This document shows positions 1,107 through 15,451 of a DNA stretch of 64,000 nucleotides, in pieces. Source of the DNA: a virus. Lineage: Duplodnaviria > Heunggongvirae > Uroviricota > Caudoviricetes. The notes beneath the pieces were generated by a model. The model was given only the letters and a program-made list of their open reading frames with translations, did no database searches and had not been told where the DNA came from. The stretch spans positions 159,270 to 223,269 of the IMG/VR virus record IMGVR_UViG_3300033074_000580; one strand, 5' to 3'. Position 1 is the stretch's first letter; each line of letters opens with the position of its first letter. A program made the position numbers and the translations under genes.

Positions 1107-1135
1107 TATCCAAAAATTTCTGAGGTGATATAAAT

Positions 1136-1262: not shown

Positions 1263-1292
1263 TGTATTGTTAAACGACTAAATAAAAATGAA

Positions 1293-1975: not shown

Positions 1976-2194
1976 ATGTTTAACGAAATTTTAGACAAAC
2001 TAAGAGAAGACGTAGGTAAACGTATTCGAATAATCGAAATGAAAGGGGAAGACTTTCAAAGTGGTACCGAAGGAACTATTACCCACATTGACGATATGTG
2101 TAACATTCACGTTCAATGGGACAACGGAAGTACATTGTCCGTAATACCCGATGAAGACCAATACGAAATTCTTGAGAACCCACATGGTAATTAA
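1976..2194 (+). CDS. hypothetical protein (72 aa)
   Basis: ORF track; stop overlaps the TTTACTGGA element at 2196. Confidence 0.5.
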   Translation: MFNEILDKLREDVGKRIRIIEMKGEDFQSGTEGTITHIDDMCNIHVQWDNGSTLSVIPDEDQYEILENPHGN

Positions 2195-2289
2195 CTTTAC
2201 TGGACTTGAAATATGATTTGGTATTACAAGTTTATGGTTATATCTTTGTAAAACAATTTTTTTTATCCACACTTTAAATTTCAAATGAA

Positions 2290-2661
2290 ATGTTAAATTT
2301 AAAATTAACCTATCACGGAAGTGGTAACACCACATTAGTAAACATGGAAAGATTTACTACAATGTATCAAACAATTGACAATCGTAACGGACAACCTTTT
2401 ACGAAGATTCATTTCTCCGAAACCAATTTCTTAATGGTACAAGAAACACCACAAGAAATTGAAGAACTAATGGATTTAATTTCAAACGGAGGTAAACAAG
2501 AAGTGGAATGGAAAGTTCCAACAATTGAAGAAAGGTTTGAACAACAAACATTCCAACCAAGACCACAAAGACAACGAGTTCCATATCAACAAAAACCAAG
2601 ATACACAACTCGTGAAACAAATTATAATAACTTTGATACACCGAACTACAATAGATATTAA
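2290..2661 (+). CDS. hypothetical protein with Q/P/R-rich C-terminus (123 aa)
   Basis: ORF track, ATG start. Confidence 0.5.
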   Translation: MLNLKLTYHGSGNTTLVNMERFTTMYQTIDNRNGQPFTKIHFSETNFLMVQETPQEIEELMDLISNGGKQEVEWKVPTIEERFEQQTFQPRPQRQRVPYQQKPRYTTRETNYNNFDTPNYNRY

Positions 2662-2774
2662 AAGTGTTGTAATACTCTTTTAATGTTATGGGTGGTTAGT
2701 GAGTATTCCCTCATCGTTAATTCGGTGGGGGATTTTTTTGTCAAGAATGTTTCCCTGTAATTCACCTGTTGTAC

Positions 2775-2800
2775 TTTACTGGAGTACATGGTCCAGTAAA
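2775..2800. repeat. TTTACTGGA / TCCAGTAAA inverted repeat
   Basis: 2775-2783 and 2792-2800. Confidence 0.9.
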
Positions 2801-2923
2801 GATTTTCCATCGGGGACCGTATCCAAGAATTTCTCTTATTTAGAATGATTATAAATTTCATTATTTTTGAAAAATAATTAAAATACCTTTGGTAAAATGG
2901 TATCATTGTGTTAATTTTATGGT

Positions 2924-3220
2924 ATGGAATTAACTCACCAAGAGTACTTGACTTTGAAGGAAATCGTAGGGAGATACGAGAAAACTTCTAACAACCCAAA
3001 CGTTTTTTTATCCACAAAGGAACTAAACAAATCCATTTACGACATGGACATTTCAGTTAGATTGTTCCACGTTATGAAAAACGGAATGGGTATCAAAACT
3101 ATCCGTGATATGATTCACTTGTCGGTTCACGACTACACGATTCAACGAAACTTCGGTAAGAGATGTCTTGAAGAACTCAAAGAAATTTACGAAGAACACG
3201 GACTTAAATTTGTAGAGTAG
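2924..3220 (+). CDS. hypothetical protein (98 aa)
   Basis: ORF track; followed by terminator 3241-3278. Confidence 0.5.
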   Translation: MELTHQEYLTLKEIVGRYEKTSNNPNVFLSTKELNKSIYDMDISVRLFHVMKNGMGIKTIRDMIHLSVHDYTIQRNFGKRCLEELKEIYEEHGLKFVE

Positions 3221-3240
3221 TAGTAATCATAACTCGAATT

Positions 3241-3278
3241 AGAATCCCTCAGACTTTTGGTTTGGGGGATTTTTGTTT
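3241..3278 (+). terminator. rho-independent terminator (repeated module)
   Basis: agaatccctcagacttttggtttgggggatttttg; near-identical copy at 5537-5578. Confidence 0.6.
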
Positions 3279-3365
3279 TCTCCTGATCTGATCCTGATCA
3301 GCTCAAAAACTTTACTGGATTATTTTGAAACACAGAAAAAAAAATCTGTGGATCCCTTCATTAAC

Positions 3366-3420
3366 TTTACTGGACTGAAATCAAAATGTTCCACGTGGAA
3401 CGTCTACCCAATCCAGTAAA
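3366..3420. repeat. TTTACTGGA ... GTTCCACGTGGAAC ... TCCAGTAAA composite element
   Basis: motif 3366-3374, perfect 14-bp palindrome 3388-3401, inverse motif 3412-3420. Confidence 0.85.
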
Positions 3421-3545
3421 CATTTTTTCTGATCACCCGGATAAAAAAAGTTTGTTCTGGACAGAAAAATAATTAGGGTAAAATAGTATTGATATGATAT
3501 TGTTTTGTATATTTGTGTATTGTTTAACTCTTAAATGTATTCCAA

Positions 3546-4121
3546 ATGAACACATTAGTAAAAAATGTTATCGAAGTAGATGACAAAGGTTTTGAGAATT
3601 TATTCCTCGATTTAGAAAATCGAAAAACAATTCCGTTTCTTTACATTGGTCGAAAAAGTGATAAACCAAATGAATTGGTTTTGAAGTCCAAAATTGACGG
3701 AAGTAAAAATCCTTATTGGAAAGAAGTAAGTAAGGAAGTTTTTAATTCATTCCGACTTGTAGTAAATTTCAAAGGTCGAGTACACGGAAATTTAGGTAAG
3801 GAAGGAAAACCTACTACCGACTATGAGGAAGGAGAATTGAAAGGTAAGGAACATATTTCCAAATGTCTTTTAACTGATAAAGTAAGTAAGACAAAAAGAT
3901 ATGTTATGTTAGAATACTTTGTTGAAAGTCCTATCAAATCTAAAACTACTTACTTTCATAACGGAAACGAAATTGATAAGAAGTTTTTAGAGAAGTGGAT
4001 TAACTTTGTTGAAACGAAGTATGACAATCAAGGTACTGATAGACCTGTTCGAGTTATTACCTTAGATATTAAGAACATTAACCAAGTAAATGTAGATGGA
4101 GTAATTTACAAACGAGGTTAA
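3546..4121 (+). CDS. hypothetical protein (191 aa)
   Basis: ORF track; preceded by a TAnnTTTG -7 box at 3508-3515 and followed by terminator 4146-4178. Confidence 0.55.
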   Translation: MNTLVKNVIEVDDKGFENLFLDLENRKTIPFLYIGRKSDKPNELVLKSKIDGSKNPYWKEVSKEVFNSFRLVVNFKGRVHGNLGKEGKPTTDYEEGELKGKEHISKCLLTDKVSKTKRYVMLEYFVESPIKSKTTYFHNGNEIDKKFLEKWINFVETKYDNQGTDRPVRVITLDIKNINQVNVDGVIYKRG

Positions 4122-4145
4122 AAATAAAAGTTCCCCCACTTTTGA

Positions 4146-4178
4146 AACCACAACATTTTTGTTGTGGTTTTTTTTGTT
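4146..4178 (+). terminator. rho-independent terminator
   Basis: CCACAACatttttGTTGTGG followed by T8. Confidence 0.75.
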
Positions 4179-4218
4179 GTTATAATTTTTTTTACCGTCT
4201 TGAAGACTGGTCGAAAAC

Positions 4219-4251
4219 TTTACTGGATTAGGGGTATTACATTCCAGTAAA
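4219..4251. repeat. TTTACTGGA / TCCAGTAAA inverted repeat
   Basis: 4219-4227 and 4243-4251. Confidence 0.9.
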
Positions 4252-4314
4252 GTATTACAGTTGGTTCACAGGGACGGTGAAAAAAAAATAAAAATAATTT
4301 ACAATAAAATGTAT

Positions 4315-4340
4315 TTTGTGTTATATTATTTGTATATTTG
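4315..4340 (+). promoter_or_regulatory. probable promoter (-7 TATATTTG; non-canonical -33 spacing)
   Basis: TATATTTG 4333-4340. Confidence 0.35.
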
Positions 4341-4363
4341 TAGACACTAAACACACACTTAAA

Positions 4364-4513
4364 ATGAAAGAAAAACAAGTAAACATTGACGACCTAATTA
4401 AAGTACTCGAAGAACAAGTACAAAAAGGAGTAACTATTGTTTCAATTAAAGGAACACTTAGTTCACCACAAGACGGAAACCTTATTATTTTATCCACCGA
4501 AAAACAAATGTAA
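4364..4513 (+). CDS. small hypothetical protein (49 aa)
   Basis: ORF 4316..4513 trimmed to ATG 4364 downstream of the -7 box at 4333-4340. Confidence 0.4.
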   Translation: MKEKQVNIDDLIKVLEEQVQKGVTIVSIKGTLSSPQDGNLIILSTEKQM

Positions 4514-4514
4514 A

Positions 4515-5078
4515 ATGAAAAAGTACGAATTAGAAATCGAACAAGACACAGATTCAGAAAATCCACGAACAAGTTGGGATAATGTTACCACAATGGTTTG
4601 TTTTCACAAACGATACAATTTAGGTGACAAACACAATTACAAATCCGATAACTTCGATAGTTGGGACGAGATGAAGGAACAAATTTTACTGGATTATAAC
4701 GTCCTAATGATTAAACCTTTGTATCTATTCGACCACTCGGGAATTACAATTTCAACAAAAGACTTTGGGGATAGATGGGATTCAGGAATGATAGGATTCA
4801 TATTCATTGATGAAAAGGAATGGAAAAAAATGATGGGTGAAGATATGGATAGAAGTGAAGAACGTTTACAAAGAATTATCGATGGTGACGTTGAAACTTA
4901 CGATTCATATTTACGAGGTGACGTTTACCGATATGAAGTTTACGAAGTAGAGGAATGTAATTTAGGTCACACACATAAAACCTTTGTTGAAGGTTGTGGA
5001 GGATATTATGATGAAGACGATTGTCGAAGTGAAGGTGAAAGGGTGATAGATTATTTACTGGAGAAAGTCCCTTCTTAA
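4515..5078 (+). CDS. hypothetical protein (187 aa)
   Basis: ORF 4437..5078 trimmed to ATG 4515, which starts 2 nt after the previous stop. Confidence 0.55.
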   Translation: MKKYELEIEQDTDSENPRTSWDNVTTMVCFHKRYNLGDKHNYKSDNFDSWDEMKEQILLDYNVLMIKPLYLFDHSGITISTKDFGDRWDSGMIGFIFIDEKEWKKMMGEDMDRSEERLQRIIDGDVETYDSYLRGDVYRYEVYEVEECNLGHTHKTFVEGCGGYYDEDDCRSEGERVIDYLLEKVPS

Positions 5079-5104
5079 CGGAGGGGACTAACGTCCTGAG
5101 TAAC

Positions 5105-5113
5105 TTTACTGGA
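5105..5113 (+). promoter_or_regulatory. TTTACTGGA upstream element
   Basis: 12 nt 5' of the TTTG at 5126. Confidence 0.5.
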
Positions 5114-5125
5114 TTGTAAATTTAA

Positions 5126-5157
5126 TTTGTATATAAAAGTATTACATTGTATATTTG
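5126..5157 (+). promoter_or_regulatory. Bacteroidota-type promoter
   Basis: TTTG 5126-5129, 20-nt spacer, TATATTTG 5150-5157. Confidence 0.6.
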
Positions 5158-5186
5158 ATTATTGTTTCACCTTAATAATTAACACT

Positions 5187-5513
5187 ATGTTTAATCAAGA
5201 TTTTAAAGACAGAGAAATTGAATTTCAAATGGACGACCTTTCAGACGAGGTTTATTTCGAAGGTTGTGATGAACACACCTTAACGGAAATGTTTATGATA
5301 CAACTATTCGAGAAAATTAAATTGAAAGATTGGTTTATTCAAGGAAATAAAACGGAAGGTATTGTAACCTTTCATTCAGACAACGAACTTACAATTGAAT
5401 GGAAGTCAATTACAATGGGGGACGATTGGGACACGGACGAAGAAGTAGAACATAAACAAGACGTCCTTTTGAATATCGACCCGAGTCAATGGGAAGTTAT
5501 AAATTACAATTAG
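5187..5513 (+). CDS. hypothetical acidic protein (108 aa)
   Basis: ORF 5127..5513 trimmed to ATG 5187 downstream of promoter 5126-5157. Confidence 0.5.
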   Translation: MFNQDFKDREIEFQMDDLSDEVYFEGCDEHTLTEMFMIQLFEKIKLKDWFIQGNKTEGIVTFHSDNELTIEWKSITMGDDWDTDEEVEHKQDVLLNIDPSQWEVINYN

Positions 5514-5536
5514 AATAGTTTAGAGTTAGGAACAGA

Positions 5537-5578
5537 GAATCCCTCAATCTTTTAGGTTGGGGGATTTTTGTTGTATTA
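5537..5578 (+). terminator. rho-independent terminator (repeated module)
   Basis: gagaatccctcaatcttttaggttgggggatttttg. Confidence 0.6.
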
Positions 5579-5605
5579 CGGATCTGATCTGATCAGGGTG
5601 AAAAC

Positions 5606-5636
5606 TTTACTGGATTGATTGTAATACTCCAGTAAA
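5606..5636. repeat. TTTACTGGA / TCCAGTAAA inverted repeat (13-nt spacer containing GTAATAC)
   Basis: 5606-5614 and 5628-5636; same spacer form as 9688-9718. Confidence 0.9.
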
Positions 5637-5770
5637 CTATTTCAGGTGATCCACGGGGATCATCAGGAAAAAATAATTTAAAATAAATTGAATTCTTTTA
5701 AAAAAAGATTTGGATAATATCTAAAATAGATTTACATTTGTTCATTCATTCACCATAAAACATATACGAT

Positions 5771-6616
5771 ATGTTATTTCCAACACAAGACAAATTGGAT
5801 TGGTCAGTAAGAACTGAAACTATCCAAACAGAATCAGGAATTCAAATTCCTAACAAGATGTCAATTATTCGTAATGACACAAATGACTTTCTTTCTATTT
5901 GTAGTGATGACTACTATCCCTACCAAAACGAAGAACTAATTAACCTACTTCAAAAGGTATCAGGTTTAACAGGACTTGATATTGTTAAGTGTGGTTTCTT
6001 CGGTAAAGGGGAAAAGGTCTTTATTCAAATGAAATCCGATAACCTTAAATTAGGTACGGATAGAATTGAAGGTTATATGACAGGTATCAATTCATTCGAT
6101 GGTTCAACCTCGTTATCATTCGGACCTAGTAACATTACAATCAGTTGTCAAAACACATTCTATTCGTCTTACAAACAAATGGAGAATAAAGTAAGACACA
6201 CAAAGAACATGGTTGTTCGTGTAGACGAAATTTGTAGAAACGTTGAATCAGTATTAGACGAAGAAAAAATTATCTTCGATAATATCATTCAATTATCTGA
6301 AACTCGTTTCGATGATATTATTAAAGATGACGTTGTTCGTAAGTTGTTCAACATTAAAAAGGAAATCGACCTTAAAGATGATGAATCAATTTCAACAGTT
6401 ACACGAAATAAGATGTCGAAATTCTATGTAGATTTACACGGAGAACTTCAAGAAAAAGGTGATAACCTTTGGGGTTTATTTAGTGGAGTTACAAAGTACA
6501 CTACACATAGTATGTACAAAGGTGATAACACGGAACGTAAAATGTTCGGTATGACAGAACGTTCAGTCGGTGGAATCGAACGAAATATTTTTAAAGGTTT
6601 AGTTGAATTGGTATAA
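5771..6616 (+). CDS. DUF932-family phage/plasmid-like protein
   Basis: 281 aa; the segment 'IIRNDTNDFLSICSDDYYPYQNEEL' resembles the DUF932/TIGR03299 signature (R-x-D-t...vs..Y-x-p-x-QN). Confidence 0.6.
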   Translation: MLFPTQDKLDWSVRTETIQTESGIQIPNKMSIIRNDTNDFLSICSDDYYPYQNEELINLLQKVSGLTGLDIVKCGFFGKGEKVFIQMKSDNLKLGTDRIEGYMTGINSFDGSTSLSFGPSNITISCQNTFYSSYKQMENKVRHTKNMVVRVDEICRNVESVLDEEKIIFDNIIQLSETRFDDIIKDDVVRKLFNIKKEIDLKDDESISTVTRNKMSKFYVDLHGELQEKGDNLWGLFSGVTKYTTHSMYKGDNTERKMFGMTERSVGGIERNIFKGLVELV

Positions 6617-6641
6617 AATCCAATTGGTTAGGTTAAGGGGA

Positions 6642-6669
6642 ACCCTCGTAGTAATACGGGGGTTTTTTA
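6642..6669 (+). terminator. rho-independent terminator
   Basis: ACCCTCGTAgtaaTACGGGGGT followed by T6. Confidence 0.7.
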
Positions 6670-6760
6670 TTTGTCTGGATTTTGTCCAGGCAAAATCTGT
6701 ATAAATTTTACTGGATTAAAGTACACCAGTTTTTTACCTGCTGATCCCCAGCTCACGAAC

Positions 6761-6782
6761 TTTACTGGATTGGTCCAGTAAA
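6761..6782. repeat. TTTACTGGA-TTGG-TCCAGTAAA tight inverted repeat inside a larger palindrome
   Basis: 6761-6769 and 6774-6782, flanked by the inverted repeat 6724-6747 / 6805-6822. Confidence 0.9.
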
Positions 6783-6837
6783 CTTTTGCCAGGAGGATCA
6801 CTGGTAAAAAACTTTTAGTTCTGGAATGAAAAATAAA

Positions 6838-6869
6838 TTTGTATGGAAACTATATAAGTGTTATATTTG
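6838..6869 (+). promoter_or_regulatory. Bacteroidota-type promoter
   Basis: TTTG 6838-6841, 20-nt spacer, TATATTTG 6862-6869. Confidence 0.65.
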
Positions 6870-6897
6870 TGTATTGTTTAATTAAAACCATATACAA

Positions 6898-7323
6898 ATG
6901 AGTATGTTAAAAAACATTGAAACCTATCGAGAGTTTCTTAAAAAACAGAAAGAAGAAAGAGAGTCTTTCTTGGAAATCGTATCAACAAAAATTGTTGACG
7001 GACTAACTGACTACATTAAAGATTTTGGTTGGGTTCGTAAAGGTAAAAGTGGTGGTCTTAGTGGTGATAAGATTAAAGGTGTTAAGTACACCAAAAATTT
7101 CAATGGTAAAGATGTTACTATCGAGTATCGTAACAATTTACGAATTGATAACGACGGGTTATATTACTCGGGTGGTTTTAATGAATTCATCCACGACAAA
7201 TCGTTAGGTGAACCATTAGAGGTACTTCGAATGAGACACTTCTATTGGAATGGTGAACATACGACAGGTTGGGATTTAGATGAGGTACTTAGACGAATGG
7301 ATGAGTTCTATTCTAAACAATAA
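6898..7323 (+). CDS. hypothetical protein (141 aa)
   Basis: ORF track; promoter 6838-6869 upstream. Confidence 0.55.
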   Translation: MSMLKNIETYREFLKKQKEERESFLEIVSTKIVDGLTDYIKDFGWVRKGKSGGLSGDKIKGVKYTKNFNGKDVTIEYRNNLRIDNDGLYYSGGFNEFIHDKSLGEPLEVLRMRHFYWNGEHTTGWDLDEVLRRMDEFYSKQ

Positions 7324-7379
7324 TTGACGGGGGACAAAGTCCCCCTTCTATAATTCATAACACAAAAAACTATACTGGA

Positions 7380-7754
7380 ATGAAACTACATATTTTAAAA
7401 GTAACTGACCAAGACGATTCACAATTTGAATCGTATTACACATTCAAAAGTTTAAGAGAACAAGTATTAAACGAATGGTACGATGTGTGGGGAGAACACA
7501 AGGAAGAATCTCAGGACTATACCAAAGAACAAATTCAAAATAGTGATGAAGATTTGATAAGTTATATGGGAAGTTGGGGTTACAATGTCGAAGTGGTTTG
7601 GATTGGTACACAAGACGATTTTCCAAAACGAACCGATGTTATTGAAGTTGATATTTCATTCTATCACCCTAACGATAACGAGAGAATTAAAGTATATGAC
7701 GATGAGGGTATGAGAGAGGAGTTCGAATATAAATTAAAAAACCTTGTAAAATAA
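7380..7754 (+). CDS. hypothetical acidic protein (124 aa)
   Basis: ORF track. Confidence 0.5.
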   Translation: MKLHILKVTDQDDSQFESYYTFKSLREQVLNEWYDVWGEHKEESQDYTKEQIQNSDEDLISYMGSWGYNVEVVWIGTQDDFPKRTDVIEVDISFYHPNDNERIKVYDDEGMREEFEYKLKNLVK

Positions 7755-7759
7755 TTCTT

Positions 7760-8011
7760 ATGTCAAACTATCAAATTAAATCAAATCAGTACATTCCACG
7801 AAATGCGAAATCCACCCCAAGTGGATTTCCAATGTGTTCAACGTATTACTATGTTGTTAATGAGGACAATAAGATAATAAACAAACACACCCTCAAAACA
7901 TATCGAGGAAGAAATTTAGATATGTTTTATTTCAGGACAGAAGAAGGGGCGAAAACTTTACTGGAACAATTAAATAATTTGGAAAGTGTTGGTATTACCG
8001 AATTAAAGTAA
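7760..8011 (+). CDS. hypothetical protein (83 aa)
   Basis: ORF track. Confidence 0.5.
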   Translation: MSNYQIKSNQYIPRNAKSTPSGFPMCSTYYYVVNEDNKIINKHTLKTYRGRNLDMFYFRTEEGAKTLLEQLNNLESVGITELK

Positions 8012-8043
8012 TACATTTGTACACACCATAAAAATAACACACA

Positions 8044-8307
8044 ATGGAAACATTTGATTTTTACTTAGACACAAAGGTTACGACTTGGTATCGTACACCA
8101 TTTGAAATTGAGGCTAAATCTTTGGAGGAGGCTAAAAAGTTAGCTATTGAGTTTGTTGAAAAAGATAGACACTCCGAAATTTCTTGGGAACAAATTGACG
8201 ACACCATTGAGGTAATGTCAACAAAAGATAATGATAACCAATCAACGGAGGTGTTATATTACGAACCTGTTGGAGATATGATTTGGGATAACACTAAAAC
8301 TAATTAA
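8044..8307 (+). CDS. hypothetical protein (87 aa)
   Basis: ORF track; -7 box TACATTTG at 8012-8019 upstream. Confidence 0.5.
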   Translation: METFDFYLDTKVTTWYRTPFEIEAKSLEEAKKLAIEFVEKDRHSEISWEQIDDTIEVMSTKDNDNQSTEVLYYEPVGDMIWDNTKTN

Positions 8308-8308
8308 C

Positions 8309-8641
8309 ATGGGAGTAGGTAAAGAAATTTATAACACAAAAAATATCATTGACCTATCGAACGTGGATTCGTGGGACTTGATGAAAGAATTAAAATCTCG
8401 TGGGTATTACACAGATTTAATTTTCGGAGTAAGTGATGTGGATTTACAATTAGAGTCTATCAATGATGGTAGAGATGAAGACAATCAAATTGTTTTAAGT
8501 GAGGAGGAGAAGATGGATGTACTCGATAGTTGTTTTAGTGTTGAGTGGTATTGTCAACGAATGAACGAAGATATTGAACAAGAACTTCTTGACCATTATG
8601 ATTCGGAGGAGTATTACAAGAAAGAAGAAATAGAAGAATAG
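8309..8641 (+). CDS. hypothetical acidic protein (110 aa)
   Basis: ORF track; followed by terminator at about 8664-8697. Confidence 0.5.
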   Translation: MGVGKEIYNTKNIIDLSNVDSWDLMKELKSRGYYTDLIFGVSDVDLQLESINDGRDEDNQIVLSEEEKMDVLDSCFSVEWYCQRMNEDIEQELLDHYDSEEYYKKEEIEE

Positions 8642-8726
8642 TGTTTTAGTGGGTTAAACAATAGGAAGGGTGGACAGAAATGTTCACCTTTTTTTATTCC
8701 CCGAACTGTGCCGGCGACGGGAAAAC

Positions 8727-8748
8727 TTTACTGGATTGGTCCAGTATA
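8727..8748. repeat. TTTACTGGA-TTGG-TCCAGTAtA inverted repeat (one mismatch)
   Basis: 8727-8735 and 8740-8748. Confidence 0.8.
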
Positions 8749-8755
8749 CTTTACA

Positions 8756-8803
8756 CAGCGCATGCGCAGCATGATCTGCGAATTTGCGCAGCCTGATCTG
8801 CTG
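8756..8803. repeat. GC-rich GATC-containing repeat (GCGCAGC[A/C]TGATCTGC, twice)
   Basis: the 18-mer GCGCAGCCTGATCTGCTG at 8786-8803 is identical to 9730-9747. Confidence 0.85.
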
Positions 8804-8810
8804 TAAATAA

Positions 8811-8819
8811 TTTACTGGA
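8811..8819 (+). promoter_or_regulatory. TTTACTGGA upstream element
   Basis: 13 nt 5' of the TTTG at 8833. Confidence 0.45.
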
Positions 8820-8884
8820 TTGAAAATATTATTTTGTTATAATCATTTTATTGTTTTATCTTTACACAACTAAAACACACATAT

Positions 8885-9643
8885 ATGGAAATGAAATTCA
8901 CAACCGTGGCGGAAGCCAAACGATTAACAGGTTTATCCTATCTCGCTAAATGTAACCACACAGCGAAACACAAAAAGGCATATAAGTACGATGAACTTGT
9001 GTATAGCCTTTATTTAGCTCCCGCGAAAATGTCTGGTTACGAAGTTTGTCCGATGAGAAATAAACATTGTACGAACTTATGTCTAAATGAATCAGGTCAC
9101 AACCGAATCGATATCCACGAAAATAAAATTAACCAATCGCGAATAACTAAAACTAAATTGTTTTTTGAGAACAGACAGTTTTTTATGGAGTGGATGATTT
9201 ATGAAATTAACTTTTATAAAAACAAAGCTAAAAAGTTAGGATATAACTTTAGTGTAAGATTAAACAATACGTCTGATTTATCCCCTGAATCATTTTATGT
9301 TGATATCGACGGAACAAAGAAAAATATATTACAATTGTTTCCCGATGTTCAATTCTACGATTACACAAAAGTTTTCAAAAGAACTGATTTAGTTAAAAAG
9401 TATAAAAATTACGATTTAACTTTTTCCTATAGTGGTACAAATATGGATGAATGTGTTCAGGCAATGGATAAGAAAATTAGAGTAGCCGTAGTATTCGAGG
9501 GTCTACCTACTACATTTTGGAATCGGAAAGTTGTCGACGGTGACAAGTACGATATGAGGTATTACGACCGAAAGAATATAATAGTCGGACTTAAGTTTAA
9601 GAAAGTCAGAAAGAAATTAGTAAAGAACCCCTTCGTAGTGTAG
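8885..9643 (+). CDS. hypothetical Cys/His-containing protein (252 aa)
   Basis: ORF track; slightly GC-richer codons than neighbouring genes; flanked by ~110-bp direct repeats. Confidence 0.55.
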   Translation: MEMKFTTVAEAKRLTGLSYLAKCNHTAKHKKAYKYDELVYSLYLAPAKMSGYEVCPMRNKHCTNLCLNESGHNRIDIHENKINQSRITKTKLFFENRQFFMEWMIYEINFYKNKAKKLGYNFSVRLNNTSDLSPESFYVDIDGTKKNILQLFPDVQFYDYTKVFKRTDLVKKYKNYDLTFSYSGTNMDECVQAMDKKIRVAVVFEGLPTTFWNRKVVDGDKYDMRYYDRKNIIVGLKFKKVRKKLVKNPFVV

Positions 9644-9653
9644 GGGTTTTTTA
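9626..9653 (+). terminator. rho-independent terminator
   Basis: AACCCCTtcgtagtgtAGGGGTT followed by a T-run; overlaps the 3' end of the gene. Confidence 0.7.
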
Positions 9654-9687
9654 TTGTGCACTGTATCTGCACAGCAACAGTAAAAAC

Positions 9688-9718
9688 TTTACTGGATTAA
9701 ATGTAATACTCCAGTAAA
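9688..9718. repeat. TTTACTGGA / TCCAGTAAA inverted repeat
   Basis: 9688-9696 and 9710-9718. Confidence 0.9.
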
Positions 9719-9727
9719 CTTTTTGAC

Positions 9728-9765
9728 ATGCGCAGCCTGATCTGCTGCAGATCATTCGCAGATCA
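9728..9765. repeat. GC-rich GATC-containing repeat, second copy
   Basis: GCGCAGCCTGATCTGCTG at 9730-9747, followed by GCAGATCAT twice. Confidence 0.85.
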
Positions 9766-9874
9766 TCTGTAAAGAATTTACTGGATTAAAAATAATTTAA
9801 AAAATTATTATCGTAATACTTGTACGGAATTAAAATTATACCTATCTTTGGTCTTCACTAAAACAATACACATT

Positions 9875-10303
9875 ATGGGAACTCGCTCAACTTATCGAAT
9901 TATCGAACAATTTACCGATAAAGGTAAAGTCGTAAATCAGGAAATCTGTTTAGTGTATCGTCAATTCGACGGATACCCAACAGGTCATCCAATGGAAACC
10001 GCTGAATGGTTGGCATCTGGCACAGTTGTAAATGGTTATTCTAATACGGATAATTTACAATTCAACGGAGCTGGTTGTTTAGCCGCACAACTTGTTGCGA
10101 AATATAAAGATGGTGTTGGTGGAACTTACATTCAATCTTTGAAATCTCGCGGAAACTCTTGGGAAGATTATCTTTATGACATTATTGTAAAAGAAGATAA
10201 AACTATTGAATATGTGTGCTATGAGAATGGGGTTCGTAAGAAAGAATTATTTCGTGGAACTCCACAGGACTTCGTAGAGAAATTTGAAAAACAAGAAGCG
10301 TAA
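9875..10303 (+). CDS. hypothetical protein (142 aa)
   Basis: ORF 9848..10303 (TTG start) trimmed to ATG 9875. Confidence 0.5.
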   Translation: MGTRSTYRIIEQFTDKGKVVNQEICLVYRQFDGYPTGHPMETAEWLASGTVVNGYSNTDNLQFNGAGCLAAQLVAKYKDGVGGTYIQSLKSRGNSWEDYLYDIIVKEDKTIEYVCYENGVRKKELFRGTPQDFVEKFEKQEA

Positions 10304-10674
10304 TGAAAAAACATCAAGTTAGATTCAATCTCGGAAAGGGAGAGAATTATATGAAGTGGAAAATAACTTACAACGACGGCAGGGTGGAATATCACCATCC
10401 TGCTGAAGTTCAGTTACTATTACACGATTGCACATTAAAGAACAACAGAAAGGCTGCACAGAGAATCTTTACTGGAGAGAGTACCAAAGTAGTTTGTGCT
10501 TATGTTCTTTGTAAGGGAATTGAAATCTTAACTGAAGATTTTATTCCTGAAACTTCCGCACATTTAAAATACAATCCTCGTGTGTTTCCATTTTGGAACT
10601 TGGATGGGATGAATGTGGATGGGAACGAATACAAAGAATTATTTTCTGTACACAGCAAGCTCTATCTAAAATAA
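10303..10674 (+). CDS. hypothetical protein (123 aa)
   Basis: ATGA stop/start overlap with the upstream gene. Confidence 0.5.
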   Translation: MKKHQVRFNLGKGENYMKWKITYNDGRVEYHHPAEVQLLLHDCTLKNNRKAAQRIFTGESTKVVCAYVLCKGIEILTEDFIPETSAHLKYNPRVFPFWNLDGMNVDGNEYKELFSVHSKLYLK

Positions 10675-10683
10675 TTTACTGGA
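10675..10683 (+). promoter_or_regulatory. TTTACTGGA upstream element
   Basis: 12 nt 5' of the TTTG at 10696. Confidence 0.5.
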
Positions 10684-10695
10684 TTGAAAAATAAG

Positions 10696-10727
10696 TTTGT
10701 TAAAATTAAATTATTGTAATACATTTG
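10696..10727 (+). promoter_or_regulatory. Bacteroidota-type promoter
   Basis: TTTG 10696-10699, 20-nt spacer, TACATTTG 10720-10727. Confidence 0.6.
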
Positions 10728-10781
10728 TACATCATTAACTCACAAACTCGTGGACAGGAGATAAACTGAACAACACTCACT

Positions 10782-11333
10782 ATGGGATTAGATATGTATC
10801 TCTCAAAGAAAACCTATGTTAAAAGATGGGGTTACGAAAAACCCGAAGAAGCATTTAATGTCACAATCCAAAAAAATGGGGTGACATATCCTCACATCAA
10901 GTCCGAACGAATTTCCTACATCACGGAAGAAATTATGTACTGGAGAAAAGCAAATCAAATTCACGGATGGATTTGTTCCAATGGTCAAGTAATCACGGAA
11001 GATGTTAGATACATTTTGGAAGGTGAACAAATTGTTGAGTTGCTTGAAACTTGTAAGAAAGTTCTTGAACTTATCAACACATCAACTAAATCGACTACAC
11101 AGGTTGTGGGTGGTTGGAGAAATGGTGAAGAATATAAAGTTGATGTTGATGTGTATGACAACACAGATGAGATTATGGAGTTACTTCCACCAACACAGGG
11201 ATTTTTCTTTGGTTCATCAATTATTGATGATTGGTATAAAGAACAAATCGAGGAAACTATTAAAGTGTTAGAAGAAGAAATCAATTCTAATACGGATAAT
11301 TATCCCGAATACGAATACTACGCTTCGTGGTAA
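10782..11333 (+). CDS. hypothetical protein (183 aa)
   Basis: ORF track; promoter 10696-10727 upstream and terminator 11345-11385 downstream. Confidence 0.5.
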   Translation: MGLDMYLSKKTYVKRWGYEKPEEAFNVTIQKNGVTYPHIKSERISYITEEIMYWRKANQIHGWICSNGQVITEDVRYILEGEQIVELLETCKKVLELINTSTKSTTQVVGGWRNGEEYKVDVDVYDNTDEIMELLPPTQGFFFGSSIIDDWYKEQIEETIKVLEEEINSNTDNYPEYEYYASW

Positions 11334-11344
11334 AATAAAATAAT

Positions 11345-11385
11345 GGGGATATTGTTAGGAATAATGATATCCCCTTTATATCTTT
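11345..11385 (+). terminator. probable terminator
   Basis: GGGGATAT...ATATCCCC stem with a U-rich tail. Confidence 0.5.
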
Positions 11386-11409
11386 GTTCAACATTTAAAC
11401 ACACAGACT

Positions 11410-12093
11410 ATGCCAAATTGGTGCAACAACTACATTGAGATTTCAGGTTCTAAGGAGAATATGAAACCCATCTACGATTACTTCAACGAAGGACAGAAAG
11501 TAATCGACAAGTATTACGAGGATGTTAAGAAGTACAGAGAAGAAAATCCTGACGCAACTGATTTAGGAGTTAGTTGGGAGGAGAATCTTGTTATGAATAC
11601 TTTAGTTCCACACGACGAGGAATACGACCGAATTAAAGAGTCAGGAGATTTCTTACTTAATCCTCAAACAAGATTTTATGGAACTAAATGGGACTTCGAC
11701 CTAAGGGAAGCAAATCTAAATCAGGTGGAAGAAACTTTAATCACATTAGCCCCATCAACAGCTTGGTCACCTCCATCCGAGTTCTGTCAAAGATTGACCA
11801 AGAAATATAATGTACACGTTAATCTTACATATGAGGAAGGTGGTGTAGGTTTTGTGGGTCAGGAAGAATTTGAGGGTGGTGAGATGATTGGACAGGTAAT
11901 CTACGAAGATTACTACGAAGGTCTTTACAATTTGGATAAAGAAACCTTTTGGAGTATGGTGGATTATGAATGTGATGATGTGGATGAAGACACCACAGAG
12001 GAGGAGTTTCTTGAGAAGTTCAATTCCTATGTGTCCGAAGAAGATTTGGAAAAGATTAAAGAATACTATCACGAATATAAAATAGAGTCGTAA
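11410..12093 (+). CDS. hypothetical protein, possibly DUF1281-like (N-terminal MPNWCNN motif)
   Basis: 227 aa; the family assignment is recalled from the N-terminal motif only. Confidence 0.45.
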   Translation: MPNWCNNYIEISGSKENMKPIYDYFNEGQKVIDKYYEDVKKYREENPDATDLGVSWEENLVMNTLVPHDEEYDRIKESGDFLLNPQTRFYGTKWDFDLREANLNQVEETLITLAPSTAWSPPSEFCQRLTKKYNVHVNLTYEEGGVGFVGQEEFEGGEMIGQVIYEDYYEGLYNLDKETFWSMVDYECDDVDEDTTEEEFLEKFNSYVSEEDLEKIKEYYHEYKIES

Positions 12094-12350
12094 TGGAAAA
12101 GAAGTTAAAAGTTAAATACAGCACATTTGTTAGCCCACTCTCATATAATGAGTGGGCACAACAATACAAGGTTTCAAGTTTATATACGGAGAGTACTCCA
12201 TATTATCAGGGAAACCTTACCCATCAGGAGCCAAACCAAAAATCCAGTTTATATCAGTCGATTGAGGATTTGTTCCCGAGAAGACCACTATTAAAATCAA
12301 TCATTCAAAAATTTAAAACAAAGAAAAGATGCCAAGAGAAAACAAACTAA
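12093..12350 (+). CDS. hypothetical protein (85 aa)
   Basis: ORF track; ATGA overlap with the upstream gene. Confidence 0.4.
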   Translation: MEKKLKVKYSTFVSPLSYNEWAQQYKVSSLYTESTPYYQGNLTHQEPNQKSSLYQSIEDLFPRRPLLKSIIQKFKTKKRCQEKTN

Positions 12351-12799
12351 CAGAAGGAGTGTTTACTGGAATAGTAGGGACTCGAGAAAGAATCAGTTCA
12401 TATGACCTATTCTTAGAAACGATGACCAAGAAGAATTCACCTGAATTATCTAAGTGGAGCAAGAAGTATCGTGACCACATCAATAAGAATAAGGTGAAGT
12501 TCCAAAACTTAGCCAAACTTGAGGAGGTGATAATGCAGCTCAGGAGTAAAGAAACTTTACTGGAGAACATCAAACTGTCACTCGTTCGTGAATACATCTA
12601 CGCAAGAGCATTGTTCTACCGTGAGGGTAAAGGGACAAAAGACATTCGTGTTATCGTCGACAAGACTGATATCTACGGTGAGGACCTTAATGTTCTTCTT
12701 AAGAATAAGGAATTTATGTCCAAAGCTGTAACCAAACTACAGGCTGCAATGGATAAAGAAATTGCTGAGAATGTGAGGACCATTGAAAATATATTCTAG
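12329..12799 (+). CDS. hypothetical protein (156 aa)
   Basis: ORF track. Confidence 0.5.
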   Translation: MPRENKLTEGVFTGIVGTRERISSYDLFLETMTKKNSPELSKWSKKYRDHINKNKVKFQNLAKLEEVIMQLRSKETLLENIKLSLVREYIYARALFYREGKGTKDIRVIVDKTDIYGEDLNVLLKNKEFMSKAVTKLQAAMDKEIAENVRTIENIF

Positions 12800-12851
12800 A
12801 ATTATTTGGAATATTCGAACGAAGTGTTAACTTTACTAAAAATTCACACAT

Positions 12852-13178
12852 ATGAACTACACAGAACAAATCAATCAATTGAGGGATAAGATGCATAAGG
12901 ACATCATCCACTCAGTTCAAAGAGCTCATTCGGTTATGGATGAGTTTGATGTCGAGTTACTTAATCCATTCTCCATTTGGGTAACCGAAGGGTTTGAGGA
13001 TGAGTATCAGGTTAATATTGCGGTTATGGGTGTATCAGGTATTACAGGTGATTTAATCACACGAGGTATTACAGAGGATGCATATTGTGATATTAACTAT
13101 AGTGACCTTACATTGGAGCAACTTGCATATCTCCACAGACAAATTGAAACACAACAATTCACCATAAACATAATATAA
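12852..13178 (+). CDS. hypothetical protein (108 aa)
   Basis: ORF track. Confidence 0.45.
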   Translation: MNYTEQINQLRDKMHKDIIHSVQRAHSVMDEFDVELLNPFSIWVTEGFEDEYQVNIAVMGVSGITGDLITRGITEDAYCDINYSDLTLEQLAYLHRQIETQQFTINII

Positions 13179-13179
13179 A

Positions 13180-13725
13180 ATGAAAACGATTCAATTAACT
13201 GAAGAAGTAATGGTATCCGACCCTTGTTACACGGTGCCAACCTGGTGTCAACATAAGCTCACAGGTGTATTACCAGGGGAGTATGTAACGAATGTTATGA
13301 AATCCGACGAGGGTGCTTGGGGACACAGGATAGGATTATTGGTGGCGGTCCATAAGGATTATGTCCACGATGATTTATCTTGGAGGGTAGTATCTGCGGC
13401 AGATATCGGGGTCGACTCGGGTCAGGCTGGCATCTTTGCAATGGACACATACAGAAAGGACAGCGTCTTCCAAGAACCAAACAACTTTGGTTTCTCCCAA
13501 GTTGCTGAGGGTGATCATTGGTACGGCCATATGTGTGATAGGACCTTAAGTGATGAGCAATGGGGAACTTACAGCCACGGGGTTGTTTCTTCCACAGGTT
13601 ACGGGGATGGTTCCTATAGATTATGTGTGGCAAAACACAATGGGAAGATTGTCGGGATTGGTATTGATTACTTGGGATATAAGAACTATGCGTTCAACCT
13701 GGTGATAGATAAAGAGTTGGTATAG
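13180..13725 (+). CDS. hypothetical protein (181 aa), GC-richer codon usage
   Basis: ORF track; compositionally distinct from the AT-rich upstream genes. Confidence 0.5.
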   Translation: MKTIQLTEEVMVSDPCYTVPTWCQHKLTGVLPGEYVTNVMKSDEGAWGHRIGLLVAVHKDYVHDDLSWRVVSAADIGVDSGQAGIFAMDTYRKDSVFQEPNNFGFSQVAEGDHWYGHMCDRTLSDEQWGTYSHGVVSSTGYGDGSYRLCVAKHNGKIVGIGIDYLGYKNYAFNLVIDKELV

Positions 13726-13784
13726 TTAAACAATATGAAGACGGGGGAGTTATTCCCCTATCTTTGTATATTAAATAAACAGAT

Positions 13785-13976
13785 ATGACAACAATTAGAA
13801 CACAGGTGATTCCAACCAAGAAAGGTTATGAAGTTTGGTACTCCTTAGATGGAGGACAATCAATGGAGCTTCATAGTGTCCACAAGACAATGGACAGTGC
13901 GGTGAAGGAAACGGTGAGCCTCAAGGGCCACTATACTTTACTGGAGAAGATTACACGTAAATTCACAAACCTCTAA
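13785..13976 (+). CDS. hypothetical protein (63 aa)
   Basis: ORF track. Confidence 0.4.
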   Translation: MTTIRTQVIPTKKGYEVWYSLDGGQSMELHSVHKTMDSAVKETVSLKGHYTLLEKITRKFTNL

Positions 13977-13989
13977 ATAACGATTAACT

Positions 13990-14127
13990 ATGAAAAAGTT
14001 CCTCAAGAAGGTAGAGTACATATGGGACATCTACTTCGTCTACTTCCTTTACAACGGCAATAAGACCGACCGTTATTATGCTTACCTCAGGAAGAAGTAC
14101 CCCGAAATGTTTACTGGAGAGAAGTAA
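13990..14127 (+). CDS. small hypothetical protein (45 aa)
   Basis: manually read ATG ORF (MKKFLKKVEYIWD...), too short for the ORF track. Confidence 0.3.
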   Translation: MKKFLKKVEYIWDIYFVYFLYNGNKTDRYYAYLRKKYPEMFTGEK

Positions 14128-14257
14128 TCTCCCCGTGATCACCCGGTGATCAGGACTCCGAAGTTTACTGGATTAGGGGACATGTAAAAATATTTTGCCG
14201 GCAGATTTTTTATTGTGGATATTATTTACTATATTTTAGTATAAAATAATAAAACAC

Positions 14258-14440
14258 ATGAAAAAACAATCATCAACACGCCGTCAGACTGTAACCACTT
14301 ATGTTCCTGTATCTGACAACATCTACCACGACGGTTCATCATACCGTGTACGTGTTAGTATCAACGGTAAGAAGTACTCTAAGAACTTCTCTAACAAACG
14401 TAAAGCGGTTTCATTCCGTAACGAATTGTTAGGTCGATAG
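14258..14440 (+). CDS. AP2/integrase-arm-like DNA-binding domain protein (60 aa)
   Basis: 'YRVRVSINGKKYSKNFSNKRKAVSFRNEL' resembles AP2/integrase DNA-binding folds; codons of the cgt/ggt/aac/tac type. Confidence 0.45.
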   Translation: MKKQSSTRRQTVTTYVPVSDNIYHDGSSYRVRVSINGKKYSKNFSNKRKAVSFRNELLGR

Positions 14441-15360
14441 TAAGTACTACTTCCAATAAGACTTCGGGGTCTCCTACAGTTGCTCATGTTAGCTGTACGG
14501 GGACCCTTCTTATTTGTACATGTCAGAGATATTCCTTACCTTGTTCTTAGGGAGGAAGAAGGTCCACAAACTTTACTGGATTAACTGATTACGGGACTCC
14601 CCTTCGGGTCGTCCCTTCATCCCGTGGTGAAGGTTCCACGTGGAACGTGGGTATTACACCATACATGTGGGACTGTATGACAGGGGTATATATTGTACTA
14701 TTCTAAGTCCCCGTCGAAAATTCCCTAAGGGTTTTTCTAAAAACCATATAACTATTCTAAGATTCAGGGATGTATTACCATCCTGAAGGGAGGACTCGTA
14801 GAGTCCGACCGACTCAATCACTTCTTTTGTGGACTTAATCCAGTAAACTATGTAATACATATAACCCATTATACGGGGGTCCTAACGGACCCCCTTCATC
14901 CCGTACAGTTGCCAGACAATATCACAATATTATGACCATAGTGTATTACCCATATTTGTCTGGCAAGAATTACGGGGACTCTGTCGAGTCCCCTTCAGGG
15001 GGGTTAGGACCTATAATGTATGACACGTTATATGGTATAATATGTATTACATAATACTATAATATAAACGGGATGAAGGACCGACCGAAACGAAGTGTAG
15101 GGAGGTCCGTATTACACTAAAATGGTTATATTCTGGTACCGGAAATAAAATGGGTCGTGATTCACGCAAGGGTCAATCCCGTAATACATTCCTAGCCCGT
15201 GGGGAAAAGTGGGAATTTGTGGATTGTAATACTGGTATCCCAAATTTTAGATAAAAAAAGATAATTTAGTATATATTTTTCGATCACGATAAAAGTGTCA
15301 GAAAAAAGTACAGGTTTTTGTACTAAAAACAGGAAAAAATTCGGTCTAATTTTAGGGGGA
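14441..15360. other. ORF-free, GC-rich, hairpin-dense repeat array at the convergent junction (candidate structured ncRNA cluster, or replication origin / iteron region)
   Basis: repeated modules: CCCTTCATCCCGT at 14613 and 14892, with the reverse-orientation copy at 15068 carrying one mismatch; TACAGTTGC twice; TACGGG(G)NYYC three times; UUCG/UUCA-looped GC stems; about eight GTAATAC/GTATTAC sites; AT-rich core 15036-15066. Confidence 0.5.
14633..14646. repeat. second copy of the perfect palindrome GTTCCACGTGGAAC
   Basis: identical to 3388-3401. Confidence 0.85.
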
Positions 15361-15451
15361 AAATAGTGTGGATTCTGACTATATTAGAGGGGTTTTATTA
15401 TGGGGTTCTGGAACCGGTATTGTCGGTCGGGAGTCTTTCGACTCCCTCCCT

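Follow-up and report, generated by a model that had tools for sequence, protein, structure and literature searches.

Does a gene that lies between two similar stretches of GC-rich DNA owe its place to those repeats, or do the repeats belong to something larger than the gene? The question is raised by gene 8885-9643 (plus strand, 252 aa; Pfam family GP88, PF17338, E = 1.8e-33; phrog_1617), which lies in a 64,000-nucleotide stretch of a Caudoviricetes genome (IMG/VR record IMGVR_UViG_3300033074_000580) that we analysed as a whole and call the window. An earlier note had viewed the gene as a moron or cassette inserted or exchanged between its own boundary repeats, or else as a gene under dedicated operator control. 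We find that the two repeats are neighbouring copies of one family of regulatory modules and that the GP88 gene is not specially bracketed by them. On balance, these modules are probably composite cassettes, each combining a terminator, a regulatory module and an early promoter, that stand between all transcription units of one gene block.

The two repeats and their immediate context

The imperfect repeats themselves are real. Global alignment of 8721-8822 with 9681-9790 yields 81 identical columns among 120, and its score of 112 compares with 42 +/- 6 for shuffles. The exact word that the repeats share is in fact a 19-mer, TGCGCAGCCTGATCTGCTG (8785-8803 and 9729-9747), rather than the 18-mer first reported, and the GC-rich blocks are borne out as well, at 52-57% GC in a window of about 33%. 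The element described as (A/G)AATTTACTGGATT is present, although the base that precedes it is T or G and not A or G. Four copies of the word TTTACTGGA occur (8727-8735, 8811-8819, 9688-9696 and 9777-9785), and inverted partners are found at 8740-8748 (TCCAGTATA, one mismatch) and 9710-9718.

Read along the plus strand, the left-hand repeat is part of a longer series of elements. The upstream operon ends in an intrinsic terminator (8669-8695, plus strand; GGTGGACAGAAATGTTCACC and seven T residues) that is identical in L203, one of the related phage loci to which we refer by L numbers. This is followed by a self-complementary block of 68% GC (8699-8721, plus strand; CCCCGAACTGTGCCGGCGACGGG), by a distal inverted motif pair (8727-8748; TTTACTGGA, ttgg, TCCAGTATA) and by a block of 57% GC (8755-8803) with the palindrome GCGCATGCGC at 8758-8767 and GATC at 8773 and 8795. 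Within the latter block, the direct repeats GCGCAGC(A/C)TGATCTGC stand at 8764-8779 and 8786-8801, 22 bp apart, and the same sequence occurs a third time at 9730. A promoter-proximal TTTACTGGA (8811-8819, plus strand) and an A-rich spacer of 12-13 nt then lead to a putative core promoter of the Bacteroidota sigmaA type for the GP88 gene (8833-8864, plus strand), which consists of TTTG (8833-8836), N20 and a -7 element, TATCTTTA (8857-8864), that is one base off consensus.

The same order of elements returns behind the gene. An intrinsic terminator of the GP88 gene (9629-9652, plus strand; CCCTTCGTAGTGTAGGGG and six T residues) and a hairpin or palindromic element (9655-9673; TGTGCACTGTATCTGCACA) precede a distal inverted pair (9688-9718; TTTACTGGA and TCCAGTAAA, with GTAATAC at 9703-9709 in the 13-nt spacer). 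Next come a block of 52% GC (9725-9768), in which GCGCAGCCTGATCTGC (9730-9745) and two copies of GCAGATCAT (9747-9755 and 9758-9766) carry GATC at 9739, 9750 and 9761 with 11-bp phasing, the third TTTACTGGA copy of this module (9777-9785, plus strand) and the putative core promoter of the 9875-10674 operon (9820-9850, plus strand; TTGT at 9820-9823, TATCTTTG at 9843-9850). The first gene of that operon (9875-10303, plus strand) encodes 142 aa and belongs to no family. It is this gene that the right-hand repeat serves as promoter module; the repeat is not a boundary of the GP88 gene, because in L206 an 86-aa open reading frame (ORF) separates the GP88 gene from the module, which stands directly upstream of the 9875 orthologue. 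The 19-nt palindrome behind the GP88 gene, TGTGCACTGTA(T/C)CTGCACA, is near-exact across lineages whose proteins are 55-70% identical; it is found at 9655-9673 in the window, at about 3351 in L203, at about 5850 in L008 and upstream of the 9875 orthologue in L206 and L207, and the modules that accompany it differ by phage.

What did not hold is the implied uniqueness of this bracketing. Many intergenic regions that are not neighbours have exact words of 16-23 nt in common, and among such pairs that of GP88 comes only about fifth. The earlier note had itself named repeats at every gene boundary as evidence against a cassette, and at the level of transcription units this is the situation that we find, at about 14 boundaries.

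A module family confined to one gene block

The window contains 37 exact copies of TTTACTGGA or its inverse TCCAGTAAA (28 on the plus and 9 on the minus strand), and all of them lie between 54 and 14,847, with about 0.8 exact copies expected by arithmetic from base composition. When one mismatch is allowed, TTTACTGGA is counted 59 times versus 27.6 +/- 5.2 in shuffles, and the shorter word TACTGGA is found 41 times in the first 15.3 kb versus 4 times in the remaining 48.7 kb. The region that holds every exact copy is a plus-strand block (1-14847) whose small genes, about 30 in number, are grouped into about 14 transcription units. The block begins about 2.6 kb upstream of the window start and spans about 15-18 kb.

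By direct reading of the intergenic regions, about 14 units share a common layout. A terminator is followed by a GC-rich block, by the inverted pair AAC-TTTACTGGA / TCCAGTAAA, the two words being 4-37 nt apart, by a second GC-rich block with an A-tract, by a proximal TTTACTGGATT or GTTTGTTCTGGA, and by TTTG-N20-TAnnTTTG, with the start codon 28-54 nt further on. The proximal element has the consensus T(T/A)CTGGA and the distal pair AAC-TTTACTGGA-TT / TCCAGTA(A/T)A, and terminator-like sites number 22 versus 9.1 in shuffles. Long sister modules, all on the plus strand, lie at 515-655 (GATCACC blocks, inverted pair 546/563, proximal GTTCTGGA, TTTG-N20-TATATTTG), 1105-1262 (outer arms GAGGTGA/TCACCTC, inverted pair 1136/1159, strict promoter), 2745-2830 (inverted pair 2775/2792), 3270-3470 (five GATC sites, motif copies at 3311, 3366 and, on the minus strand, 3412), 4185-4290 (outer GC arms that pair round the inner motif pair, flanked by T8 and A9 runs), 5570-5675 (five GATC sites, inverted pair 5606/5628) and 6690-6870 (paired outer arms that contain GATC, inverted pair 6761/6774, strict promoter). 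A short module at 54-102 (plus strand) has one TTTACTGGA at 12 nt before TTTG-N20-TACATTTG; the modules at 2196, 5105 and 10675 are built alike, with the proximal copy only, and at 14164 a single copy precedes a TTTG that is outside the strict promoter set.

Dispersed stretches of 30-130 bp of intergenic DNA bounded by inverted repeats could call to mind miniature inverted-repeat transposable elements, with TTTACTGGA and TCCAGTAAA as their terminal repeats. This origin is barely credible, as the elements occupy orthologous positions in diverged phages, keep a fixed register with promoters, occur as single half-sites and as intragenic copies, and have internal sequences that are unrelated from module to module, with no transposase seen in the window. 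An integron attC reading was likewise dropped, given the orthologous positions, the fixed promoter register and the lack of any integrase or transposase among the genes seen.

A second short word has a similar distribution. GTAWTAC (GTATTAC or GTAATAC) occurs 31 times in 1-15,226 and 0 times in the other 49 kb (about 12 expected; p = 5e-20), and GTATGAC/GTCATAC occurs 8 times in the block and 0 times elsewhere in the window. Copies of this type sit in hairpin loops, promoter spacers and coding sequence. In all relatives checked, whatever their motif, the block shows an enrichment of GTAWTAC of about 5- to 12-fold, and the flanking minus-strand DNA has none.

Composition and position of the GP88 gene

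If the gene had been acquired as a cassette, its composition might betray this, and the earlier note had indeed credited it with GC-richer codons than its neighbours. We do not find this. The GC content of the gene (0.332) ranks 22nd among the 30 genes of the block (z = -0.58), GC at third codon positions is 0.356 (z = +0.03), and the codon log-likelihood lies inside the range of the other block genes. Members of the family are common, at more than 597 loci in IMG/VR, and distant matches occur in phages of Pelagibacter, Xanthomonas and other hosts; searched alone against cultured phages, the protein finds distant, unrelated phages only, and such distant homologues have no motif beside them.

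Among relatives, the gene keeps a syntenic slot (L002-L005, L008, L197-L200, L203/L204, L206-L208 and L211/L212) and is found there in at least 12 related loci. The slot is not invariant, however. In L201 it is filled by an unrelated ORF of 57 aa between modules of that phage's own type, L202 and L205 are rearranged such that GP88 is not close to the 9875 orthologue, and in L203 and L206 an extra small ORF stands before or after GP88. The replacement in L201 and the extra ORFs of L203 and L206 lie between modules, in relatives that are too diverged for breakpoints to be mapped. Thus, the idea of exchange survives to the extent that gene content shifts at module boundaries, but not as a cassette specific to GP88.

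We therefore consider it very improbable that the gene is a moron or mobile cassette that moved by way of its own two boundary repeats. It does have a promoter (predicted at 8833-8864) and a terminator (9629-9652) of its own, as a moron would, the flanking GC-rich blocks share the 19-mer, with the upstream block seemingly converted towards the downstream type in the window/L203 lineage, the slot is filled otherwise in L201, and GP88 is not near the 9875 orthologue in L202 and L205. Against this stand the same repeats around about 14 units, the longer exact words that join non-adjacent modules, the average composition at all codon positions and at the third, the conserved place in most relatives, the ORF that parts gene and module in L206, and the motif-free distant homologues. 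The cassette claim as first read was ordinary and mostly wrong.

A positioned upstream element of one promoter class

The motif has a strict relation to promoters. The first 15 kb contain 8 strict TTTG-N20-TAnnTTTG sites that precede genes, and at 7 of them CTGGA ends exactly 12 nt before TTTG, whereas all 6 strict promoters of the minus-strand genes at 15-59 kb are without the motif element. TTTG/TAnnTTTG is the promoter consensus of the primary sigma factor of Bacteroidetes (PMC7366714), and matches to promoters of the sigma-70 type are not enriched. Because the 12-nt register is kept in the block and the element is absent from the minus-strand promoters, the motif behaves as an upstream element that has a set position in a single class of promoters. 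The 12 nt that part CTGGA from TTTG are rich in A (ccacaaaataaa and ttgaaaaataag, for instance), as is predicted for an UP element.

It could be argued that the motif or its hairpin is itself the promoter, either as an N4-like hairpin for a polymerase packaged in the virion or with TTTACTGGA as the -35 element of a phage sigma factor, in which case the host-type elements would be part of the leader or make up another promoter that overlaps the first. In favour of this, the motif differs by lineage, points in the direction of transcription and is found in only one block, temporal in appearance, of a phage of jumbo size, and the hairpin promoters of N4 offer a precedent. Even so, we rate the proposal as quite improbable. 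Strong and correctly spaced host-type -33 and -7 elements are found 28-54 nt before the start codons, the loops vary more and are far larger than those of N4, which measure 3 nt, and a -35 role would leave the inverted copies unexplained. No polymerase or sigma gene is seen in the window, outside which most of the genome lies, and a giant polymerase ORF of the N4 kind is missing from it (the largest ORF encodes 715 aa).

One gene of the block is of particular interest for upstream promoter DNA. The module at 2745-2830 stands upstream of a gene (2924-3220, plus strand) for a stand-alone homologue, 98 aa long, of the carboxy-terminal domain of the RNA polymerase alpha subunit (alpha-CTD; PF03118, 44.4 bits versus a cut-off of 23.8). 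Its best PDB matches are all alpha-CTDs (top E = 9e-7), the R265 equivalent and the G-K loop are conserved, and 'SVR' and 'NFGK' are kept, with V, R, F and G invariant in the alignment. The homologue is conserved within the block in L206-L209. It has no PHROG family and no tblastn match among 50,697 cultured-phage records, and a literature search on phage alpha-CTD homologues or promoter motifs of Flavobacteria jumbo phages returned nothing relevant. As a speculative proposal, this protein is a candidate reader of, or competitor at, upstream promoter DNA.

Motif switching between relatives

Relatives were sought and identified through proteins because motif patterns gave chance matches in IMG/VR. 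The pattern TTTACTGGA-N(2-30)-TCCAGTAAA returned single chance matches only, a stricter pattern returned 5 chance matches, and four loci with multiple motif copies (L144, L154, L164 and L183) were rejected as collagen-like repeats that encode G-F-T-G. Literature on the motif sequence consisted of primers only. The true relatives of the window are large uncultured phages, the nearest of which, L211, is 99.97% identical to it.

These relatives keep the architecture and the synteny but carry a motif of their own, such as TTTACTGGGG, TTTACCGGGAT, AAAACTGG... or TTGTCTGGC. The window shares TTTACTGGATT with L206 and L207, while the corresponding motif is GTTTACTGGGG / CCCCAGTAA in L203/L204, AGTTTACCGGGAT / TCCCGGTAA in L008, AAAACTGGAA in L004/L197, AAAACTGGTTGGG in L208, TTGTCTGGC in L201 and ATGTTTGGCC in L198-L200. 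The motif of L004 likewise stands 12 nt before TTTG. Even coding sequence takes part in the switch. An orthologous gene encodes the peptide VFTGI as GTG TTT ACT GGA ATA in the window (12362-12370) and as GTA TTT ACC GGG ATT in L008 (8860-8870), so that synonymous codons recreate each phage's own motif (TTT ACT GGA and TTT ACC GGG A, respectively); in L203, the motif of that phage lies about 30 nt before the start of the orthologue.

Such lineage-specific spelling indicates selection for sequence-specific recognition by a reader that differs between lineages. A phage-encoded factor would be the simplest explanation. A host factor is possible, because restriction-avoidance patterns differ among the phages and their hosts, too, probably differ.

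The same comparisons bear on recombination as the primary role of the cassettes. In T4-type promoter-early stem-loops (PeSLs), an early promoter of host type and a stem-loop form a cassette that recurs in plastic regions and mediates modular shuffling (PMC2839356, PMC4122927). On this precedent, the present cassettes might persist mainly for homologous recombination, with the motif and the GC-rich blocks as patches of homology. Gene content of relatives does differ at module boundaries, and sub-elements such as GTGCACTGTATCTGCAC are found in different modules in different phages. Yet homology patches would not call for a rigid 12-nt spacing to the -33 element, a strand bias of 28 plus versus 9 minus copies, motif copies kept within coding sequence through synonymous codons or a motif variant that switches genome-wide. 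The spacing, strand bias, codon choice and switching argue for selection on sequence-specific recognition and not on homology alone. Strains at 99-100% identity, including the nearest, L211 and L212, show no real rearrangement. We consequently regard a primarily recombinational role as unlikely.

Seeming strain-level duplications at modules of L212 were set aside as scaffold gaps. This public scaffold, from a strain that matches the window at about 99% identity, is interrupted by gaps of 100 N, with overlaps of 55 nt, at 7293-7392 and 9769-9868, and these coincide exactly with two modules (about 472-526 and 2792-2846 in the window), which implies that the repeats break assemblies. The contigs of L004 and L008 also terminate within the block.

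Sequence elements or folded structures

Inverted repeats invite a structural explanation. The nested repeats, in which outer GC arms enclose inner motif arms between a T-run in front and an A-run behind, might act as RNA hairpins, with roles as insulators or bidirectional terminators, in RNase processing and stability, or as attenuators in which the minus copy pairs alternatively with the first or the second plus copy. At the DNA level, they might act as cruciforms that tune supercoiling-sensitive promoters. Several modules do form nested hairpins with paired outer GC-rich blocks, and fold much better than shuffles, with z scores of -5.4 at 4190-4290, -4.3 at 6690-6815 and -3.9 at 9650-9792. 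The outer blocks vary between modules and remain complementary nevertheless, loop lengths vary from 3 to 45 nt, and both arms change together when the motif switches between phages.

Other observations are difficult to reconcile with base pairing as the function. Short modules have a single motif copy without a partner and keep the exact spacing, the folding of several modules (2745-2830, 1105-1200 and 8698-8825) does not surpass that of shuffles (z from -0.9 to -1.6), a canonical terminator already stands ahead of each module, and no Rfam family matches. Moreover, the minus arm is TCCAGTATA in 12 of 12 cases in L206 and 12 of 15 in L207, with a plus arm that is mostly TTTACTGGA, and this systematic mismatch argues for reading of the sequence over pairing of the arms. 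Because of the register of single copies, the arm mismatch and the terminators already in place, we favour DNA sites with cooperative binding at proximal and distal positions, and give the structural explanation a low but not negligible probability, in that a cruciform or an RNA hairpin may still contribute.

A subclass shared by two adjacent promoters

The modules before GP88 and before gene 9875 have a layout of their own, in which a plus and a minus copy of the motif, a GC-rich block of 58-67 nt and a further plus copy follow one another. It is found only at these two positions, in the window, L206 and L207, and the resulting six modules can be aligned with one another as a single subfamily. 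The block holds GCGCATGCGC, GCATGCGCAG and GATC repeats and is recognisable at orthologous positions in L203, L206 and L207; the orthologous modules that flank GP88 align across phages, with GCAGCRTGATCTGC and GCATGCGCAG included. A partial match to the subclass is present in L201, where the module before the 9875 orthologue has GATC clusters with TGCGCTG. In all, the subclass is retained in at least four lineages. The upstream block of the window is closer to the downstream type than to the upstream block of L206 and L207, a sign that in the window/L203 lineage the two modules may have recombined or undergone conversion. The earlier idea of dedicated operator control can thus be retained in altered form. 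A dedicated extra operator is plausible as shared control of two adjacent promoters, but not for GP88 alone.

The GATC sites deserve separate comment. GATC is the most avoided tetramer in the window (24 versus about 210 expected), and 21 of the 24 sites fall in intergenic modules of the first 14.3 kb, with one (58972) beyond 15.3 kb. Other palindromes are also avoided (ATTAAT, 0 versus 54 expected; CTAG, 21 versus 84). Because the GATC sites are spaced by 22 bp before GP88 and by 11 + 11 bp behind it, they would lie on one face of the helix, which supports a shared extra operator for the two promoters. Their distance from the presumed -33 element, which lies downstream of them, is 38-60 nt at GP88 and 59-81 nt at 9875, and they do not fall within the -33 and -7 elements; in a Dam-type switch, GATC would stand inside the core elements or inside a regulator's site that overlaps them. 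The sole methyltransferase seen in the window is of the C5 type (PF00145), most of the genome being outside. Modules of L008 and L208 are free of GATC, and the site is therefore not essential to the module family.

A more elaborate proposal would combine these features into a private 'promoter code' of the first gene block with three layers. In the first, a phage factor, possibly the alpha-CTD homologue, may replace or compete with the host alpha-CTD at the motif; in the second, GCGCATGCGC and the phased GATC sites could form a switch, sensitive to methylation or to a protein, that governs some of the promoters, that of GP88 among them; and in the third, GTAWTAC would mark the whole block. That all three apply jointly is doubtful.

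The proposed mechanism

The reading that we favour, at somewhat better than even confidence, is that of the composite terminator, regulatory-module and early-promoter cassettes introduced at the outset. In this mechanism, the TTTG-N20-TAnnTTTG promoters would be read by host RNA polymerase, and the motif would be the DNA site of a lineage-specific, most likely phage-encoded protein that activates the promoter class or later shuts it off, with distal and proximal sites cooperating. The GC-rich and GATC-containing blocks would serve as subclass-specific operators or as arms that form cruciforms, and the GCGCATGCGC/GATCTGC block would place the GP88 and 9875 promoters under shared extra control. 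As a by-product, the repeated cassettes would offer substrates for recombination, by which genes are shuffled between relatives.

The architecture, the rigid spacing, the confinement of the motif to the block, the lineage variants and the conservation of the GP88/9875 subclass are observed directly; that the promoters are early and the motif protein-bound we infer from the sequence, and this must be counted among several points that weigh against the favoured mechanism. The mutual complementarity of the outer GC-rich blocks in several modules (z from -3.9 to -5.4) supports a structural role, and the 3-45 nt between the inverted arms would be unusual for a dimeric DNA-binding protein and suits a hairpin better. 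Both promoters next to the GP88 gene are off consensus, that of GP88 in its 13-nt spacer and in TATCTTTA, and that of 9875 with its nearest motif about 34 nt before the presumed -33 element. Furthermore, no cognate factor for the motif was identified, and variation in the recognition helix of the alpha-CTD homologue does not cleanly follow the motif in a comparison that includes L209 and leaves aside the motif variants L203 and L008.

The phage and the surroundings of the block

A contig of 323,865 bp encodes a protein identical to one of the block, which points to a phage of about 324 kb. Judged from this size and from its promoters, the phage is giant and of the kind with Bacteroidota-type promoters, and the genes of the block are probably early. 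Family searches of the window proteins placed most of the small genes behind modules in no database family. Cultured phages gave no match to 8000-11000 (blastn) or to two window proteins (tblastn).

The plus-strand block also encodes DUF3846, DUF4314, DUF932 and DUF1281_C proteins. Accessory genes typical of giant phages follow in the rest of the window, with products of the B12-binding radical SAM (35353-37500, minus strand), C5 cytosine methyltransferase (47911-48888, minus strand), thymidylate synthase (52967-54013, minus strand), PcfJ-like (50427-52286, minus strand) and SPFH/band-7 (31509-32453, minus strand) types and two glycosyltransferases (59510-62145, plus strand). Where the plus- and minus-strand gene blocks meet lies a non-coding junction of 1 kb (14441-15451) that is richer in GC (41-42%) and has many hairpins and repeats. 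It holds 10 copies of GTAWTAC/GTATGAC, and an inverted motif pair (14572/14839) is spaced there by 250 nt. No Rfam family reached threshold in the window or in the 14.3-15.5 kb junction, and a tRNA scan of the window found none. The perfect palindrome GTTCCACGTGGAAC occurs twice (3388-3401 and 14633-14646), both times in non-coding DNA.

Significance and comparison with known systems

Given that the cassette claim did not stand, it seems appropriate to ask what the locus offers instead. We see its value in a clean, highly stereotyped grammar of cis-regulation, found in giant phages that are uncultured and have Bacteroidota-type hosts, a setting where control of phage transcription is almost unstudied. 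The genome-wide switching of the motif between relatives amounts to a natural covariation experiment by which the reader protein might be found. GATC clusters kept in a genome otherwise purged of GATC, and a free-standing alpha-CTD homologue in the same block, lead to testable hypotheses on how a promoter class is marked or timed. The modules might also provide strong, insulated promoter and terminator parts for use in Bacteroidota.

Several known systems resemble parts of this arrangement. Like a lambdoid moron, the GP88 gene has its own promoter and terminator between neighbours, and it is replaced in L201 and locally absent in L202/L205, whereas its composition is not atypical, it is syntenic in most relatives, and all neighbouring units are organised alike. 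P1 pac and cre, IS10 and Mu mom are regions with GATC clusters that are sensitive to Dam methylation or to binding of the SeqA type, and they share with the present modules GATC sites about one to two helical turns apart in regulatory DNA. They differ in that GATC here stands upstream of the core elements, no Dam gene is seen, and the modules of L008 and L208 manage without GATC. The early promoters of N4, hairpins with 3-nt loops that are read by the virion RNA polymerase, are similar in that a lytic phage has conserved inverted repeats ahead of its early genes, but the loops of 3-45 nt, the stems of 9-12 bp, the host-type promoters and the far greater number of copies set the present elements apart.

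A nearer parallel for the motif is found in the boxes of phage-specific activators and repressors, such as the MotA box of T4 middle promoters and the sites of phi29 p4 upstream of A3, A2b and A2c. In these systems, as here, a short phage-specific word at a fixed distance from the core elements for host RNA polymerase defines a temporal promoter class, and inverted-repeat sites occur further upstream. Unlike the MotA box, which takes the place of the -35 element, the motif leaves the -33 element intact and stands about 12 nt upstream of it at the position of an UP element; the spacing of the inverted copies is also variable here.

For the cassette as a whole, the closest described system is that of the T4-type PeSLs, which we offer as an analogy and not as a claim of membership. 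Nothing places this phage among T4-like phages, although no search aimed at T4-like hallmark genes was made. Here the promoters follow the TTTG/TAnnTTTG pattern of Bacteroidota, and the cassette, at about 150-250 bp, greatly exceeds a PeSL in length and has in addition a lineage-specific motif of 9-13 nt, proximal and inverted distal, together with GC-rich GATC blocks. Recombination and mini-circles are features of PeSLs; for the cassettes described here, recombination would be a possible by-product. What the two systems have in common is substantial nevertheless. Both have dozens of repeated cassettes, in which an early promoter of host type is combined with AT-rich DNA upstream of it and with a terminator or stem-loop. 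In the window, the promoter of the host primary sigma factor is represented by 8 strict and further near-consensus sites of the Bacteroidota consensus, and the stable stem-loop by predicted terminators, with the excess of terminator-like sites over shuffles and fold z scores down to -5.4 given above. In both systems, finally, the cassettes (about 14 modules here) are located before small genes of no known function in plastic regions, and the gene content of relatives varies at these cassettes.

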